Part shown: positions 4,436-24,898 of the stretch, one piece after another | How the letters are laid out: every line of letters begins with the position of its first letter | Numbering within the stretch: the first letter of the stretch is position 1 | Source: a virus | Taxonomy: Duplodnaviria; Heunggongvirae; Uroviricota; Caudoviricetes | Virus record (IMG/VR): IMGVR_UViG_2718218305_000013 | DNA: 24,898 bases | Direction: 5' to 3' (one strand) | The notes under the pieces: generated by a model | What the model saw: the letters and a program-made list of their open reading frames with translations, nothing else | Databases searched by the model: none | What the model was told of the DNA's origin: nothing | Translations under genes and position numbers: made by a program

Positions 4436-4656
4436 CAGGCCACCTCCGCATTCATCAGGTCGTCATGGCAGCGTTGCACCACTCCATCCAGTTGCTCTGT
4501 CATCAGATAAATGAGGGAAACCAGTTGTTCGCATTGGGCACCTGCTGGCTTTTCATAACAGTCCTGCAGGACTGCCATGCCAGTTACATACTCACCCACA
4601 TTGCGTAAATGTTTCAGCCTTACAACATCGTCGTAGGAAATCTCAAACTGGTTCAT
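4435..4656 (-). CDS. Hypothetical small protein, 73 aa
   Basis: ATG at 4656 overlaps the upstream gene's stop (ATGA); translationally coupled chain leading to alpha. Confidence 0.5.
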
Positions 4657-4847
4657 AGCGTCACCTCCCCGGCAGGCAGCCGTGCAGAAAGGGAGAGTAC
4701 ATAATCTCGGACTAGCAAACGGCGCGCGGAACGCTCATCGCAGGAGACAGTGCGAAGCATACAGATGCGGGGGTGAGTGTCAGCACGGCGGATTGCGGCA
4801 AACACAAAGACATATTGCGGGTGTGACGGGGTGAGGATTGTAGCCAT
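4653..4847 (-). CDS. Hypothetical small protein, 64 aa (only the 3' part of the 185-codon ORF 4653..5210)
   Basis: ATG verified at 4847 ([11 protein letters not shown]...); the upstream 120 codons of the long ORF look non-coding (GC-rich hairpins). Confidence 0.45.
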
Positions 4848-5206
4848 GATGGCAGCCTCCAATAAGTAGCGGTTATTGCTACCACCGGAAACGCCAATTT
4901 CACTGGTGGCAGCCCGAACGGGGTTGGCGTAACCGGCCTTATTGGAAACCGGCCAGCCCGAAGGCTGCCCCGCCCGGACTACCATTATCTCGATAGAACC
5001 ATGGTGTAAGCATAAACACCACAGCCCTGAAAATGGTTGTGCCTGAGCTACGACGTAAAAAAAGACGCAAGGGGCGTCAATTGTCGCCAATAAGTTATAC
5101 GGAACGCCAATTCCGGCTGCCGATTTTGCGACAGCGGAAAAACTATACCTGGAAATGACGACAGTAAGCAAGCCAGAATAAAGGTATTTAATGTATGCAG
5201 GTATCA

Positions 5207-19028: not shown

Positions 19029-19339
19029 CAGAGTAATACTCCCCATGCCCCTACATCAAAACCACTGATGAATTCGTTATCCATATCAAAACCAAAAAAT
19101 TTAGAGCCTTCCGATGGAGTTTCCACCGAAGGTGTTTCAATGCCCCCCGCCCATACCCCGGCGGCTTTTACTGTTAGATACCCCTGTTTAATTGCCGCAA
19201 TTAACTCACGCGATACATCTGAAATATCAGTATCAGGAAAGACCCAGACCGATATCGTCATGTCCTGGTTATCGATGTTGGCGATCCGACGCATCTGCTC
19301 ACGGTCAAAGTTAACCATCTGTGCGGCGATGTTTTTCAT
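19028..19339 (-). pseudogene. P: Chimeric ORF: first 21 codons of lambda P fused in frame to the C-terminal 82 codons of an unidentified (presumably tail/baseplate) gene
   Basis: MKNIAAQMVNFDREQMRRIAN is the lambda P N-terminus; sequence diverges after codon 21 at about 19276/19277, where the plus strand reads ATCGAT. Confidence 0.75.
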
Positions 19340-20258
19340 AAATCCACCCCGTAAATCCAGTCAGTGTTTGTCAGGTCGAGTTTTGGTTTGCTGGCTGTCA
19401 CGCCTGCCTGTTGCTTGTTACGGTTGATTTCGAGCTGGGTCCACTTGTCGCGGAGTTTGGCCGGACTCAGCACGTTACCGGACCAGAAGTTGTCCTGGCA
19501 GGCCCAGCGGAAAAGCACACACATATCGCGGTGGTTACGTCCGTCACGTTCACGCATCAGGCGGATATCGTTAGCCCACCCAGCAAAATTCGGTTTTCTG
19601 GCTGATGGCGCGATGGTCTTCACCATGTCAAACATCCACTCTGCGGCGGTCAGGTCTTCTGCTGTTCCCCACTTGCTGCCGCTCTGAATTGCAGCATCCG
19701 GTTTAACCACAGAAAGATCGTTTTCTGGCTGGTCAGAGGATTCGCCAGAATTCTCGGACGAATAATCTTTTCTTTTTTCTTTTGTAATAGTGTCTTTTGT
19801 GTCCCCCTGTTTTGAGGGATAGCAATCCCCCAATTTGAGGGATAGCAATCCCCCAATTTGAGGGATGTTTTATCCCTCGTTTTAGGGGATTTTCCCTCGT
19901 TTTGAGGGATACACCATTCTGAGATGTTTTTATTTGGTCCAAACATGCCGCCTTGCTGCTTGATAATATTCATTCTGACGAGTTCTAACTTGGCTTCATT
20001 GCACCGTTTGACAGGTAACTTTGTAATCTCGCTAAGTTGAGAATCGGTGATTCTGTCCATTGGTTTATTCCACCCATAGGTTTTACGCAGAATGGCAAGC
20101 AGCACTTTAAACTGTCGCTTGGTCAGATCTGCGCCCGAATAAGCCTCAAGCAGCATATTTGATAGTCTGGCGTAACCATCATCGAGATCTGCCACATTAC
20201 GCTCCTGTCCGGCAAAGTTACCTCTGCCGAAGTTGAGTATTTTTGCTGTATTTGTCAT
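19336..20258 (-). pseudogene. O: Lambda O replication initiator gene, frameshifted by a 23-bp tandem duplication in the iteron region
   Basis: ORF 19650..20258 = O residues 1-141 then out-of-frame tail; ORF 19336..19848 = remaining 158 residues; 141+158 = 299 = lambda O length; SLKLGDCYPS is encoded twice, 23 nt apart. Confidence 0.85.
19806..19912 (-). repeat. ori lambda iterons inside O, five copies here (one 23-bp unit duplicated)
   Basis: Minus-strand repeats tccctcaaaacgaggga / atcccctaaaacgaggga / atccctcaaattgggggattgct (twice) / atccctcaaaacaggggga. Confidence 0.8.
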
Positions 20259-20290: not shown

Positions 20291-20584
20291 TCAGAACTCC
20301 ATCTGGATTTGTTCAGAACGCTCGGTTGCCGCCGGGCGTTTTTTATTGGTGAGAATCGCAGCAACTTGTCGCGCCAATCGAGCCATGTCGTCGTCAACGC
20401 CCCCCCATTCAAGAACAGCAAGCAGCATTGAGAACTTTGGAATCCAGTCTCTCTTCCACCTGCTGATCTGCGACTTATCAACTCCCACAGCTTCCGCTGT
20501 CTTCTCAGTTCCAAGCATTGCGATTTTGTTAAGCAACGCACTCTCGATTCGTAGAGCCTCGTTGCGTTTGTTTGCACGAACCAT
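20291..20584 (-). CDS. cII: Lambda cII transcriptional activator, 97 aa
   Basis: MVRANKRNEALRIESALLNKIAMLGTEKTAEAVGVDKSQISRWKRDWIPKF... from ATG 20584. Confidence 0.9.
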   Translation of the reverse strand: MVRANKRNEALRIESALLNKIAMLGTEKTAEAVGVDKSQISRWKRDWIPKFSMLLAVLEWGGVDDDMARLARQVAAILTNKKRPAATERSEQIQMEF

Positions 20585-20663
20585 ATGTAAGTATTTCCTT
20601 AGATAACAATTGATTGAATGTATGCAAATAAATGCATACACCATAGGTGTGGTTTAATTGGAT

Positions 20664-20696
20664 GCCCTTTTTCAGGGCTGGAATGTGTAAGAGCGG
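20664..20696 (-). promoter_or_regulatory. nutR (boxA gtaagagcg and boxB gccctgaaaaagggc) between cro and cII
   Basis: boxB hairpin at 20664-20678 and boxA at 20688-20696, read on the minus strand. Confidence 0.7.
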
Positions 20697-20702
20697 GGTT
20701 AT

Positions 20703-20912
<210 letters not shown>

Positions 20913-20929
20913 TTAGTACATGCAACCAT

Positions 20930-20993
20930 TATCACCGCCAGAGGTAAAGTAGTCAACACGCGCGGTGTTAGATATTTATCCCTTGCGGTGATA
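20930..20993. promoter_or_regulatory. OR1-OR2-OR3 operators with divergent PR/PRM promoters
   Basis: tatcaccgccagaggta (OR1), caacacgcgcggtgtta (OR2), tatcccttgcggtgata (OR3), between the cro and cI starts. Confidence 0.85.
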
Positions 20994-21000
20994 GATTTAA

Positions 21001-21717
<717 letters not shown>

Positions 21718-21775
21718 TAGGAAGTAAGTTTTATGTTGACGGCACAGTCAACTTGGCATAGATTAATTAAACCAA

Positions 21776-21835
21776 GCCCAGCCCCGTTCGCAGACAATTG
21801 TTAATATCTGCATAACGGCTCTGGGCTATTTTTTT
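21776..21835 (+). terminator. Long GC-rich hairpin followed by T7, strong rho-independent terminator after cI
   Basis: gcccagccccgtt...aacggctctgggc stem with nested gcaga/tctgc stem, then tattttttt; ends 10 nt before the next ORF's ATG. Confidence 0.6.
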
Positions 21836-21844
21836 GGGACTCTT

Positions 21845-22196
21845 ATGAAGAAAGCAGCAATTTTAATTGATGCGGGTTTTTTCATGCAGCGTGTTCATGC
21901 TACGCATCGTAAACACTTCGCCGAGCATGAACTGACTGCGCAATGCATAATGAAAGTAATATGGTCAATGGTTCTTTCCCATCTTAATGGAAAACGTCAA
22001 TCACAAGAACGTAGGGAACCGCTTGAGCTTTATAGAATTTACTTCTATGACTGTCCACCACTCGACATTCAAACACGCCTTCCACTTCCTGAGCCTGGCA
22101 ATAAGACGCCTGGTCGCAAGAATTTCAAACTCGAAAAATCATATATTCTGAGAACGGAGCTGCATGAAGAGTTAAGAAAAACTCGAAAAACAGCCT
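21845..22196 (+). pseudogene. 5' fragment (117 codons) of an unknown gene in the rexAB position, interrupted by IS insertion; possible NYN/PIN-like N-terminus
   Basis: MKKAAILIDAGFF... start fits the first strand of NYN/PIN-like domains (weak); reading frame runs into the IS left end at 22197; not RexA by sequence. Confidence 0.5.
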
Positions 22197-22238
22197 TGAA
22201 CCGCCCCGGGTTTCCTGGAGAGTGTTTTATCTGTGAAC

Positions 22239-23129
22239 TCAGGCTGCCAGATCATCGTTTCCGATGGAAGCATAATAAGCTTTTTCTGCTTCTGCCGGAG
22301 GAGTATGGCCCAGCCTTCCCAGCAATCGTCGATTGTTATACCAGTCCACCCACGTTAGTGTGGCCAGTTCCACTTCTGCACGGTTTTTCCAGCTCTTACG
22401 GTGTATTACCTCCGCTTTGTAAAGACCATTGATGCTCTCAGCCATCGCGTTGTCATACGAGTCGCCTGTACTCCCTGTTGATGCCAGTAATCCGGCTTCT
22501 TTTAGTCGCTCCGTATAGGCCAGTGACACATACTGAGAGCCTTTATCGCTGTGATGGATGGTGCCAGACGGACGACGGGCCCACAACGCCTGCTCCAGCG
22601 CATCCAGCACGAATGTCGTTTCCATAGACGATGAGACCCGCCACCCCACGATGTATCCGGCAAACACATCAATGATAAACGCCACATAGACGAAGCCCTG
22701 CCATGTGCTGACGTAAGTAAAATCAGCCACCCACAGCTGGTCAGGTCGTTCTGCCACGAACTGACGGTTTACGCGGTCGCCTGCGGCAACGGCTTTCCGG
22801 CTGATGGTCGTACGGACCTTTTTACCCCGGAGAACACCGGCAAGTCCCATAACCGCCATGAGACGTGCCACTGTACATCTGGCCACCCTGATTCCTTCCC
22901 GTAACAACTGACGCCAGACTTTACGCACACCGTACACCTGATGATTTTCATCGTATACGCGCTGTATCTCTCTCTTCAGCCAGTCGTCGTGCTGCGCACG
23001 GGCACTGCGTTTATCCGGATGATGTCGCTGTTGCTGACAATGGTAATACGTTGACGGGGCAATATGCAGTTCGCTGCATACCGGTCCGACCCCGTACTGC
23101 TCACGCAGCTTATCCAGCAGTGGCATCAT
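22239..23129 (-). CDS. IS3-family transposase OrfB (DDE catalytic domain), 296 aa
   Basis: DDE-type integrase core (WVADFTYV...HHSDKGSQY...[20 protein letters not shown]); -1 frame relative to orfA. Confidence 0.85.
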
Positions 23130-23452
23130 TTTTTCCAGAGGCGGTCGAACTCCGCCTTCGCAAAATAAGCGGAAGCCTGGCGAAGGATATCGTTACTGCG
23201 GCGCAGTTCACGATTTTCACGTTCCAGCTCTTTCAGACGCTGACGTTCAGCGCTGGTGAGCCCACCATCACCGCCCCCGGTATCCCGCTCATGCTGGCGA
23301 ACCCAGACACGCAGAGTCTCCGGCGTACAGCCAATCTTTGGGGCAATGGAACAAATTGCCGCCCACTGTGAGTCATATTCATCCTGACTTTCCAGAACCA
23401 TACGAATCGCCCGCTGACGGACTTCGGGGGAAAAACGAGTATTTTTAGTCAT
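23126..23452 (-). CDS. IS3-family transposase OrfA (HTH/leucine-zipper part), 108 aa
   Basis: [22 protein letters not shown]...[33 protein letters not shown] is the typical IS629/IS3 OrfA; ends in AAAAAATGA, overlapping the orfB start. Confidence 0.85.
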
Positions 23453-23628
23453 CCTGTTTACCTCTTTCTCAGGGAGTTTAGTCTCCAGGAAACCCGGGGC
23501 GGTTCACCAATTGTATTTATTTTAAAATTAATAGGTGCAACTCACTAAACAACGCAATTCTGATCTCTCGATCACCTCCCAAGCCACACAACCCTGCAAA
23601 AAATAAATCTATATAAAAAACATACAGA

Positions 23629-23700
23629 TAACCATCTGCGGTGATAAATTATCTCTGGCGGTGTTGACACAAATACCACTAGCGGTGATACTAAGCACAT
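23629..23700 (+). promoter_or_regulatory. Lambda OL3-OL2-OL1 operators and PL promoter (-35 ttgaca, -10 gatact)
   Basis: aaccatctgcggtgata, tatctctggcggtgttg and taccactagcggtgata read directly; promoter drives rightward (plus) transcription toward N. Confidence 0.85.
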
Positions 23701-23732
23701 CAGCAGGACGCACTAACCACCATGAAGGTGAT

Positions 23733-23762
23733 GCTCTTAAAAATTAAGCCCTGAAGAAGGGC
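23733..23762 (+). promoter_or_regulatory. nutL (boxA-like tgctcttaaaaattaa and boxB gccctgaagaagggc)
   Basis: boxB hairpin at 23748-23762; boxA reads TGCTCTTA rather than the CGCTCTTA I remember for lambda. Confidence 0.65.
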
Positions 23763-23919
23763 AGCATTCAAAGCAGAAGGCTTTGGTGTGTGTGATACGA
23801 AACGAAGCATTGGCCGGAAGTGCGAATCCGGATTAGCAGCCAATGTGCCATTGCGGGGTGTTTTCGTTCAGGACTACGACTCCCACACACAACCAAAGCT
23901 AACTAACAGGAGAATCCAG

Positions 23920-24033
23920 ATGGATGCACAAACACGCCGCCGCGAACGTCGCGCAGAGAAACAGGCTCAATGGAAAGCAGATCGGATTCTGGCTTCAACA
24001 TTTCGCAGGAATGCAACTAAGAGACATTACTGA
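23920..24033 (+). pseudogene. N: Truncated lambda N: first 20 codons ([20 protein letters not shown]) then foreign out-of-frame sequence
   Basis: N start with GGAG RBS; after codon 20 the sequence continues into integrase coding sequence, giving a 37-codon ORF. Confidence 0.8.
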
Positions 24034-24898
24034 ATCAAAAATTTATTCAGCAATGCAGAAAATGACGAACCGGCGTCATGAGGAAAACTGGAAACTCAGG
24101 GCAGAAGCATGCAGAAAAAAAGGGAAACCTGTTCCAGAATACACGCCAAAACCAGCGTCCGTTGCAACGAAGGCTACGCATCTTTCATTTATAAAGGCCC
24201 TGCTAAGAGCCGCAGAGCGTGAATGGAAAATGCTCGATAAGGCACCAATTATTAAAGTGCCTCAACCAAAGAATAAACGGCTCCGCTGGCTGGAGCCCCA
24301 TGAAGCACAAAGGCTGATTGATGAATGTCCGGAGCCATTAAAGTCTGTTGTTGAATTTGCACTGGCAACAGGCTTAAGACGCTCGAACATCATCAACCTT
24401 GAATGGCAACAAATAGATATGCAGCGCCGGGTGGCATGGATAAACCCGGAAGAGAGTAAATCAAACCGCGCAATTGGCGTTGCGCTGAATGATACTGCAT
24501 GTCGCGTATTGAAAAAACAAATCGGTAATCATCACCGTTGGGTATTTGTGTACAAGGAAAGCTGTACCAAACCAGACGGAACGAAAGCGCCAACAGTAAG
24601 GAAGATGCGGTATGACGCAAACACAGCCTGGAAAGCGGCGCTGAGACGGGCTGGTATTGATGATTTCAGATTTCACGACTTGAGACACACCTGGGCAAGT
24701 TGGCTGGTTCAAGCCGGAGTCCCGTTGTCAGTGTTACAGGAAATGGGAGGCTGGGAGTCTATCGAAATGGTTCGTCGATATGCTCACCTTGCACCTAATC
24801 ACCTTACCGAACACGCACGGCAAATAGACTCGATCCTGAACCCATCGGTCCCAAATTTGTCCCAGTCAAAAAATAAGGAAGGTACTAATGATGTGTAA
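23981..24898 (+). pseudogene. int: C-terminal approximately 305 codons of a lambdoid tyrosine integrase (DLP12 IntD-like), N-terminally truncated and joined to N'
   Basis: [22 protein letters not shown]...[17 protein letters not shown]...VRRYAHL catalytic region resembles IntD from about residue 95 onward; stop at 24896-24898; the only upstream ATG in frame lies inside N'. Confidence 0.75.

Follow-up and report, generated by a model that had tools for sequence, protein, structure and literature searches.

What occupies the place of rexA and rexB in a lambda-type immunity region that carries neither gene? The question is raised by IMG/VR virus record IMGVR_UViG_2718218305_000013, a DNA stretch of 24,898 nucleotides assigned to the Caudoviricetes (hereafter the window), which is a prophage remnant adjoining thrW/proA of Escherichia coli O157:H7. 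The lambda-immunity region of the window lies in reverse map order, with the cI repressor gene at 21004–21717 on the + strand (a 237-residue open reading frame (ORF) with HTH_3 and Peptidase_S24 domains), and from cro to cI the window (20644–21721) is 97.8% identical to lambda 38300–37223. As the initial annotation of this DNA had stated, the sequence diverges from lambda directly after cI: the likeness ends 4 nt past the cI stop codon and comes back only at window 23506–23980, which corresponds to lambda 35771–35300. We consider it rather probable that the segment between these points is what is left of a self-contained accessory (‘moron’) cassette that replaced rexA-rexB, and that the intact form provides an NYN-domain ribonuclease (RNase), attenuated by its own structured leader RNA, for competition between genetic elements. 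The anatomy of the cassette and its gene family are assigned with high confidence, its regulatory and defence roles with moderate to low confidence.

The gene remnant directly behind cI starts at 21845, where the ORF reads MKKAAILIDAGFF, and its open frame continues into an insertion sequence (IS) as far as 22432. It had been described as 117 codons of a possibly NYN- or PIN-like gene, to be searched for among relatives, and such a search recovered the intact gene. The 479 bp past cI are 100% identical in 58 phage records and 274 E. coli genomes, and window 21845–22195 (+ strand) represents codons 1–117 of a gene of 285 codons, with 100% identity to the intact genes in two other loci, L001 and L002. 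The intact 285-residue ORF is present in phages EC.P3, ev099 and E212, in 48 Shiga toxin 2a (Stx2a)-converting phages and in many E. coli chromosomes, and carriers of the intact cassette include many prophages of avian pathogenic, Shiga toxin-producing and commensal E. coli. In L002 (4128–4985) and many RefSeq genomes the Prokaryotic Genome Annotation Pipeline splits this ORF into a ‘PIN domain-containing’, C-terminally incomplete pseudogene and a separate 117-residue ‘NYN domain-containing protein’; since the frame translates without a stop, the split looks like an annotation artefact.

The 117-residue fragment alone gives no Pfam match at E ≤ 1, and a search of PDB sequences returned only noise. 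The intact 285-residue homologue scores 36.8 bits against Pfam NYN (PF01936; cut-off 24.2) and matches phrog_5783 with an E-value of 1.5e-119, and a fold search gave it a PIN-like α/β fold in agreement with NYN structures, so that the original guess at the family was correct. Its closest counterparts are the NYN/LabA-like PF01936 nucleases VPA0982 (PDB 2qip) and the NYN domain of Marf1 (PDB 5yaa), from which it is set apart by its length of about 285 residues, an insertion some 90 residues long and the basic tail at its C-terminus; it belongs to a distinct and large subfamily, with 7035 database matches in many phyla. Across 49 homologues seven aspartates never vary (D9, D69, D164, D170, D189, D191 and D224), and the intact product would be a metal-dependent PIN-like RNase. 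Only D9 and D69 are retained in the window copy, leaving the acidic active-site set incomplete, and since this copy ends at residue 117 with two of the seven invariant aspartates its protein must be inactive.

The flanks were compared with the intact locus L002. In L002 lambda homology restarts at the rexB stop codon, with the terminator tIMM included, and tIMM begins 7 nt after the NYN stop codon; the NYN cassette therefore exactly replaces rexA-rexB. Homology to RexA or RexB is absent, since lambda 37222–35772 has no DNA counterpart in the window and the domain content of the intact gene is different. These results bear out the proposal that a gene other than rex had taken the rexAB slot, between the cI stop codon and tIMM. 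Relative to L002 the window lacks bases 4481–5051 (571 bp), that is, the 3′ 505 bp of the gene, tIMM, which in intact loci comes after the NYN gene, and the spacer up to ...ATAA/CCAATTG (the slash marks the joint).

Between cI and the NYN gene lies a structured leader RNA with the appearance of an intrinsic terminator (21769–21835, + strand), which is identified both by folding and by a covariance model built from loci of the window type (R2). It comprises the stems P1 (21775–21781 paired with 21821–21827), P1b (CCGTT/AACGG) and P2 (GCAGA/TCTGC), a 12-nt loop and a tail of one A followed by seven T (T7, 21829–21835), which ends 9 nt before the ATG at 21845, so that the T7-tailed hairpin reported ahead of the ORF is indeed there. 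The predicted fold has an energy of −25.9 kcal/mol (z = −3.64; 2 of 200 shuffles fold equally well) and has the form of an intrinsic terminator, a stable GC-rich hairpin with a U-tract directly after it; a terminator scanner missed it because that scan is limited to loops of 8 nt. R2 identifies this one locus in the 24.9-kb window (81.6 bits, E 5e-18), with a 28.3-bit reverse-strand echo over the same palindromic hairpin, and has no match in lambda. Searches of Rfam 15 gave nothing at E ≤ 1 in window 20500–24898 except a pseudoknot in the IS, and nothing at the leader motif in ten diverse loci; neither variant of the leader described below matches any Rfam family.

Does this hairpin belong to cI or to the gene behind it? 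In the P22-like Proteus phage Brookers an NYN protein with 74% identity is encoded just 3′ of a LexA-like repressor gene, and the same hairpin stands upstream with a compensatory change from GCAGA/UCUGC to GUAGA/UCUAC. The window-type hairpin also precedes NYN homologues at a Pantoea locus that has no repressor nearby, in a Pseudomonas island adjoining higBA, and in a prophage whose copy of the gene, on the opposite strand, is flanked by Q and the lysis genes. In an alignment of 13 gammaproteobacterial loci of this type (A2), 97% of the cells are paired and double, compensatory changes occur in 9 of 16 pairs. When 80 further genomes spanning Gamma-, Beta- and Alphaproteobacteria, Bacteroidota, Acidobacteriota, Bacillota, Treponema, Verrucomicrobiota and Elusimicrobiota were examined, a hairpin with a U-run was found 10–40 nt before the start codon of almost every NYN homologue.

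Most of the leaders in these 80 genomes form a major class, with P1 of the form GCCCnnGG/CCnnGGGC, a variable P2, a U-tract and an asymmetric internal loop (5′-CAGUA(C/A) opposite 5′-CGANC) that is more strongly conserved than the helices. The major-class alignment (A4) has compensatory changes in 15 of 16 pairs, with 87.8% of cells paired as against 70.4% in shuffles. In the covariation controls the observed values were reached in none of 500 shuffles, and they collapsed in shifted registers. A covariance model of the major class (R1), searched over 557 kb, gave 61 matches at E ≤ 1 (49 of them at E < 0.003), nearly all of which lie at most about 100 nt upstream of an NYN start and on the NYN strand. 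The U-tract is kept across the family: for each of tail positions 1–6, T is found in 30–43 of the 49 sequences. We take the AGUA opposite GAN in the major class to resemble a bulged-G (sarcin-ricin/loop E) module, often a protein-binding platform, a loop that is absent from the window variant.

The leader is also coupled to a promoter-like site (21735–21764, + strand), with TTGACG at 21736–21741, a 17-nt spacer and TAGATT at 21759–21764, which matches the consensus at 9 of 12 positions and probably functions as the promoter of the cassette. Its −10 box ends 10 nt before the base of P1. A sigma-70 match of at least 9/12 whose −10 box ends 3–13 nt before P1 is present at 30 of 66 homologous loci, compared with 0.2% of 458 control positions. 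Since the gap from the U-run to the ATG is only 9 nt, a promoter after the hairpin is not possible. With a promoter abutting the hairpin and none after it, transcripts should start at the hairpin, with two possible outcomes: termination at the U-run, which would yield an RNA of about 65 nt, or read-through into NYN. An inverted repeat, GTTGAC-n6-GTCAAC (21735–21752), overlaps the −35 box and may be an operator; similar repeats are found around the TTGAC box in the Proteus phage and in the prophage with the gene in the Q slot.

The occurrence of the hairpin and its U-run upstream of NYN homologues without a nearby cI, the covariation and the presence of its own promoter argue, from comparative sequence data, that the hairpin is very probably a conserved part of the NYN cassette and not of cI. 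The earlier view of a terminator in the cI slot thus stands as regards the form of the structure; it is not simply the terminator of cI or of PRM transcripts, because it precedes NYN homologues that have no cI nearby.

On this basis we propose that the intact cassette consists of its own sigma-70 promoter, a structured leader of approximately 65 nt near the transcription start, ending in a U-run, and a 285-residue NYN nuclease. Most transcripts would end at the leader, which would act as a promoter-proximal attenuator, and NYN would be made from the minority that read through. The conserved loops of the leader may bind a factor in trans, most probably NYN itself, giving negative feedback or, less likely, neutralisation of the type III kind. 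Such leader control would keep a potentially toxic RNase low in lysogens, and the RNase would act in competition between prophages and other mobile elements, as in phage exclusion. A hairpin in the cI slot would also end PRM and PRE transcripts, and NYN would thereby be uncoupled from cI. The window has lost codons 118–285 together with the terminator that follows them, and has an IS629 element at the joint, leaving a protein that must be inactive behind an intact promoter and leader.

In several respects the cassette resembles systems already known. It shares with rexA-rexB of lambda the slot from the cI stop codon to tIMM, the direction of transcription and the lambda-immunity prophage, but it differs from them in lacking sequence or domain similarity, in having one gene rather than two, and in possessing a promoter of its own and, in the leader, a hairpin that would stop read-through from PRM. 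Lambda rexAB is co-transcribed with cI. Like intrinsic terminators and attenuators in 5′ leaders, the NYN leader has a GC-rich stem and a U-run just after a promoter and before a nuclease gene, and autoregulation of an RNase through a 5′ untranslated region (UTR) hairpin with an internal loop is exemplified by the rne leader. It differs from ordinary attenuators in being long (approximately 53 nt) and multi-tiered, in having internal or terminal loops that are conserved across phyla, and in matching nothing in Rfam.

The association also holds when it is approached from the RNA. A search of viral contigs for the window-type hairpin gave 41 loci, 40 of which have NYN downstream. For the major class a loose DNA pattern gave mostly chance matches in these contigs, and only the 15 strong matches confirmed by R1 were used; NYN is downstream of ten.

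The position of the gene suggests what it might do. In lambda-like and P22-like phages NYN is a solitary cargo gene downstream of cI or of a LexA-like repressor gene; in the Streptococcus phage Javan85 and the P2-like Burkholderia phage phiE202 it lies between the repressor or a toxin–antitoxin (TA) pair and the integrase, and in a Pseudomonas syringae prophage it is at the prophage end, with the integrase adjoining. Other copies lie between Q and the lysis genes, adjoining TA pairs, or beside glmS in Proteus. This distribution is as expected of exclusion, defence or addiction cargo, which is circumstantial evidence; judged from position only, a defence role is plausible.

A number of observations weigh against the cassette as we propose it. 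The lone NYN-less locus of the window type, L142 (3555–3626), has the hairpin without the cassette promoter: it is 94% identical over 72 nt to a window-type leader (R2, 81.8 bits) and follows a Q-like antiterminator gene and a long leader, directly before tRNA-Arg and lysis genes, which is the tR′ position. Five of the 15 strong major-class matches likewise have no recognisable intact NYN downstream, and lie beside other cargo or are remnants. The RNA can therefore be free-standing, which supports real terminator activity and weakens NYN-specificity, and the hairpin may be a portable terminator module. The enterobacterial variant found in the window lacks the CAGUA/CGANC loop and is not detected by R1, for which reason R2 had to be built separately. 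The copies beside glmS in Proteus are at an integration hot spot with no obvious mobile genes around them. PADLOC-DB v2 gave only short, weak matches (HEC-09, 19 bits, E 2e-4, residues 155–200; an NYN model, 16 bits, E 1.4e-3), and we found no published experimental work on this NYN family as regards RNase activity, toxicity, termination or defence. More broadly, a literature search covering prophage and anti-phage NYN proteins, rexAB and lambdoid phages, RNA motifs, and catalogues of small RNAs of enterohaemorrhagic E. coli brought up no description of this gene or RNA.

Three of the NYN-less major-class matches score 53–63 bits, and their neighbouring proteins were named by eye. In L169 (9254–9316) the RNA match overlaps an opposite-strand ToxN/AbiQ-like fragment, with an integrase adjoining; in L152 (9217–9281), where a cI-like repressor is adjacent, it precedes a RelA/SpoT-like ORF by 250 nt; and in L191 (3144–3211) it is directly upstream of a 101-residue ORF resembling the C-terminal domain of RpoA.

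Could NYN be something other than a defence protein? It might be an RNA-processing or regulatory nuclease of some other benefit to the element or its host, one that tunes, for example, prophage or host transcripts and is subject to ordinary autoregulation through its 5′ UTR, and we regard this as a possibility of a tentative kind. It is consistent with phrog_5783 carrying no function and RefSeq giving the product no name beyond ‘NYN domain-containing protein’, with defence models giving the family weak, partial matches at most, and with the existence of chromosomal copies beside housekeeping genes. It accounts less well for the recurrence of the gene in classic exclusion-gene slots (rex, the integrase side, between Q and lysis, the side of TA pairs) and for its patchy, mobile distribution.

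A second alternative is a TA or abortive-infection system resembling type III, in which the terminated leader RNA would neutralise NYN through its loop and the phage-induced loss of this labile RNA would free the RNase. The order of promoter, structured RNA, terminator-like U-run and RNase gene, the conserved loop, the lack of a conserved protein partner, and the location of the gene in lysogeny-module slots of prophages and adjoining TA pairs would all be expected of such a system, and ToxIN, CptIN, TenpIN and AbiF-RCd22 have the same order (promoter, structured non-coding RNA, terminator, nuclease gene) and are also found on mobile elements. A precedent is given by AbiF, a prophage Abi toxin that is neutralised by the non-repeat RNA RCd22 (doi 10.1101/2025.04.15.648962). 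However, there are no tandem or direct RNA repeats in 21650–22250, the protein has an NYN fold and is neither ToxN/AbiQ nor Abi_2, and the RNA sometimes occurs without NYN, so that we consider this explanation unlikely. In a wider form the leader and NYN would make up an undescribed two-component RNA–protein module, spread over phages, prophages and islands of many bacterial phyla, in which a promoter-proximal small RNA that ends in a terminator and has a sarcin-ricin/loop-E-like internal loop (CAGUA/GAN) senses or neutralises NYN; this too we would not expect to be the case, at about the same level of doubt.

We favour the leader-attenuated NYN cassette over these alternatives, and turn to how the copy in the window was broken. 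At the joint stands an IS629/IS1203 element of the IS3 family (22197–23506, − strand; 1310 bp) that contains HTH_Tnp_1 and rve ORFs, with orfA at 23452–23126 and orfB at 23129–22239 (both − strand). Its inverted repeats (22197–22221 and 23482–23506) are 25 nt long and 100% complementary, where no such match is expected in shuffles, and an ALIL frameshift pseudoknot (RF01497) lies at 23171–23055 (121.5 bits). The length of about 1.3 kb, the TG...CA terminal inverted repeats, orfA and orfB with a −1 frameshift signal, and a DDE (rve) transposase are those of IS629/IS1203. The domains, the ALIL signal and the perfect complementarity confirm the initial description of a 1310-bp IS3-family element with intact 25-bp repeats, and its remark that a target-site duplication is missing also holds: the 3-bp duplication is absent, the left flank being CCT and the right flank CCA. 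The element is 99.8% identical to the copy in TW14359 (annotated as IS1203), which has the inverted orientation. It differs from that copy at 23491–23493, a change that makes the window repeats perfect, with GGGTTTCC in place of GGAAATCC as the orfA-side repeat. This perfect-repeat subtype is present in 219 records, among them the pO157 plasmid of a strain with the window allele. An IS in the opposite orientation is found at the same chromosomal site in L003 (4483–5792).

At least six junction alleles exist in O157. The window-type allele reads CAGCCT-IS-CCAATTG, with the transposase on the − strand (35 genomes), and the TW14359-type allele (60 genomes) reads CAGCCATAA-IS-TAACCAATTG; its IS is oriented the other way, its left inverted repeat is imperfect, and it has a TAA duplication. 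Three alleles are free of the IS: CAGCCATAACCAATTG in at least five genomes, CAGCCAATTG in strain 26_141088, and CACCAATTG in ATCC 35150 and EDL933-like stocks. The allele of O157:H7 DEC4E (L196 2300–3175, at the thrW site) keeps NYN codons 1–256 and has a 156-bp deletion with a CAA microhomology joint, GG/CAATTG, which takes out the basic tail and tIMM. The right-hand ends of all joints fall within ATAACCAATTG, the IS629 target, and that of DEC4E in the same 7 nt, which marks the site as a hot spot of rearrangement; an independent origin of the O157 alleles was rejected on the same grounds.

It had been suggested that the element also deleted the rest of the gene. That this IS629 copy made the truncation in one step, by a transposase-mediated adjacent deletion from an insertion inside the gene, would explain why there is no target duplication and why the flanks CAGCCT and CCAATTG both read as intact locus. 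The allele series nevertheless makes it distinctly improbable. In the 60 O157 genomes with the reversed IS the TAA duplication is present and the joint lies 4 bp to the left of the element (CAGCC/ATAA-IS-TAACCAATTG); there are IS-free joints (CCATAACCAA in at least five genomes, CCAA, and the same minus G); DEC4E has its own 156-bp deletion with a right end in the same 7 nt; and the perfect-repeat subtype of the window IS occurs elsewhere, including pO157, so that recurrent events of the IS629/IEE type with microhomology fit better. Because in the TW14359 allele 4 bp separate the joint from an IS whose duplication is intact, and the IS-free CAGCCATAACCAATTG allele has the same joint, the 571-bp deletion and that insertion were separate events. 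IEE is a polymerase with microhomology-mediated end-joining activity that promotes such events in O157 (PMC9943667).

An IS629/IEE-associated rearrangement is therefore likely, and the part of the earlier suggestion that invoked a single adjacent deletion by this copy does not stand. Excision with later re-insertion of a different IS copy, or a secondary event of another kind, is the simplest reading of the window allele; the lone T at 22196 could belong to the intact gene sequence or be part of an imperfect CCT/CCA duplication. Inversion of the IS in place, between its repeats, was rejected because the flanks differ (ATAA/TAA as against T/none) and because the orfA-side repeat carries the triplet of the other repeat, which neither crossover position predicts, in a subtype that exists elsewhere. 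The locus resembles the IS629/IS1203 polymorphism and IEE excision of O157 in its 1310-bp IS3-family element, ALIL signal, polymorphic site and IS-free joints with 2–3 nt of microhomology, and is unlike the usual polymorphism in that the same site holds the IS in both orientations, depending on lineage, and in that the window copy has perfect repeats and no duplication. The junction is a compact case of repeated IS629/IEE-type rearrangement at one site.

Beyond the IS the lambda backbone resumes at 23507–23692 (+ strand), where comparison with lambda identifies the tIMM-to-OL region, the OL operators and PL (TTGACA at 23664, GATACT at 23687–23692). The lambda N gene is cut after codon 20 (window 23921–24898, with lambda similarity up to 23980), and its remnant is fused to a tyrosine integrase gene whose N-terminus is lacking according to RefSeq; tRNA-Thr (thrW) and proA come next in related genomes. 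Since N is cut and joined to the integrase gene, the prophage has lost its entire PL arm, N to int, by deletion. On the other side, the lambda-type replication gene O (19336–20258, − strand) is broken into two overlapping frames of 202 and 170 residues, in agreement with O157 genomes, in which the replication protein is annotated as ‘frameshifted’ and P is partial and borders directly on tail-fibre genes. Only a heavily decayed remnant of the prophage is left.

The weakest explanation, that the hairpin is merely the terminator of the cI (PRM/PRE) transcript with no specific link to an independently expressed gene behind it, can draw on its intrinsic-terminator form 57 nt past the cI stop codon, on the identical hairpin at the tR′ position of L142, which can act as a stand-alone terminator, and on the fact that in this prophage the hairpin would necessarily stop PRM read-through too, but is very improbable, and as the sole function of the hairpin largely refuted, because the same structure stands before NYN homologues whose upstream neighbour is an unrelated gene or lies on the opposite strand, and because of the covariation, loops that termination does not need, the abutting promoter and a 9-nt gap that leaves no room for another.

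The remnant in the window is itself ordinary, a dead copy with an O157 IS polymorphism whose allele series is unusually rich. What is new is the conserved leader RNA, together with its coupling to a cargo nuclease that is widespread and takes the place of rexAB. The O157 lineages provide a natural series of knock-out alleles, comprising the intact gene, the gene minus its C-terminal tail, and 117-codon stubs with or without the IS. The intact cassette occupies the slot of phage biology’s classic exclusion system, and the leader is a candidate for a new class of cis-regulatory or antitoxin RNA, as NYN is for a prophage-encoded RNase effector. If the two-component reading were true, leader and NYN would form a new class of type III-like toxin–antitoxin or abortive-infection system, the one found in place of rexAB in a group of lambdoid and Stx2a phages.

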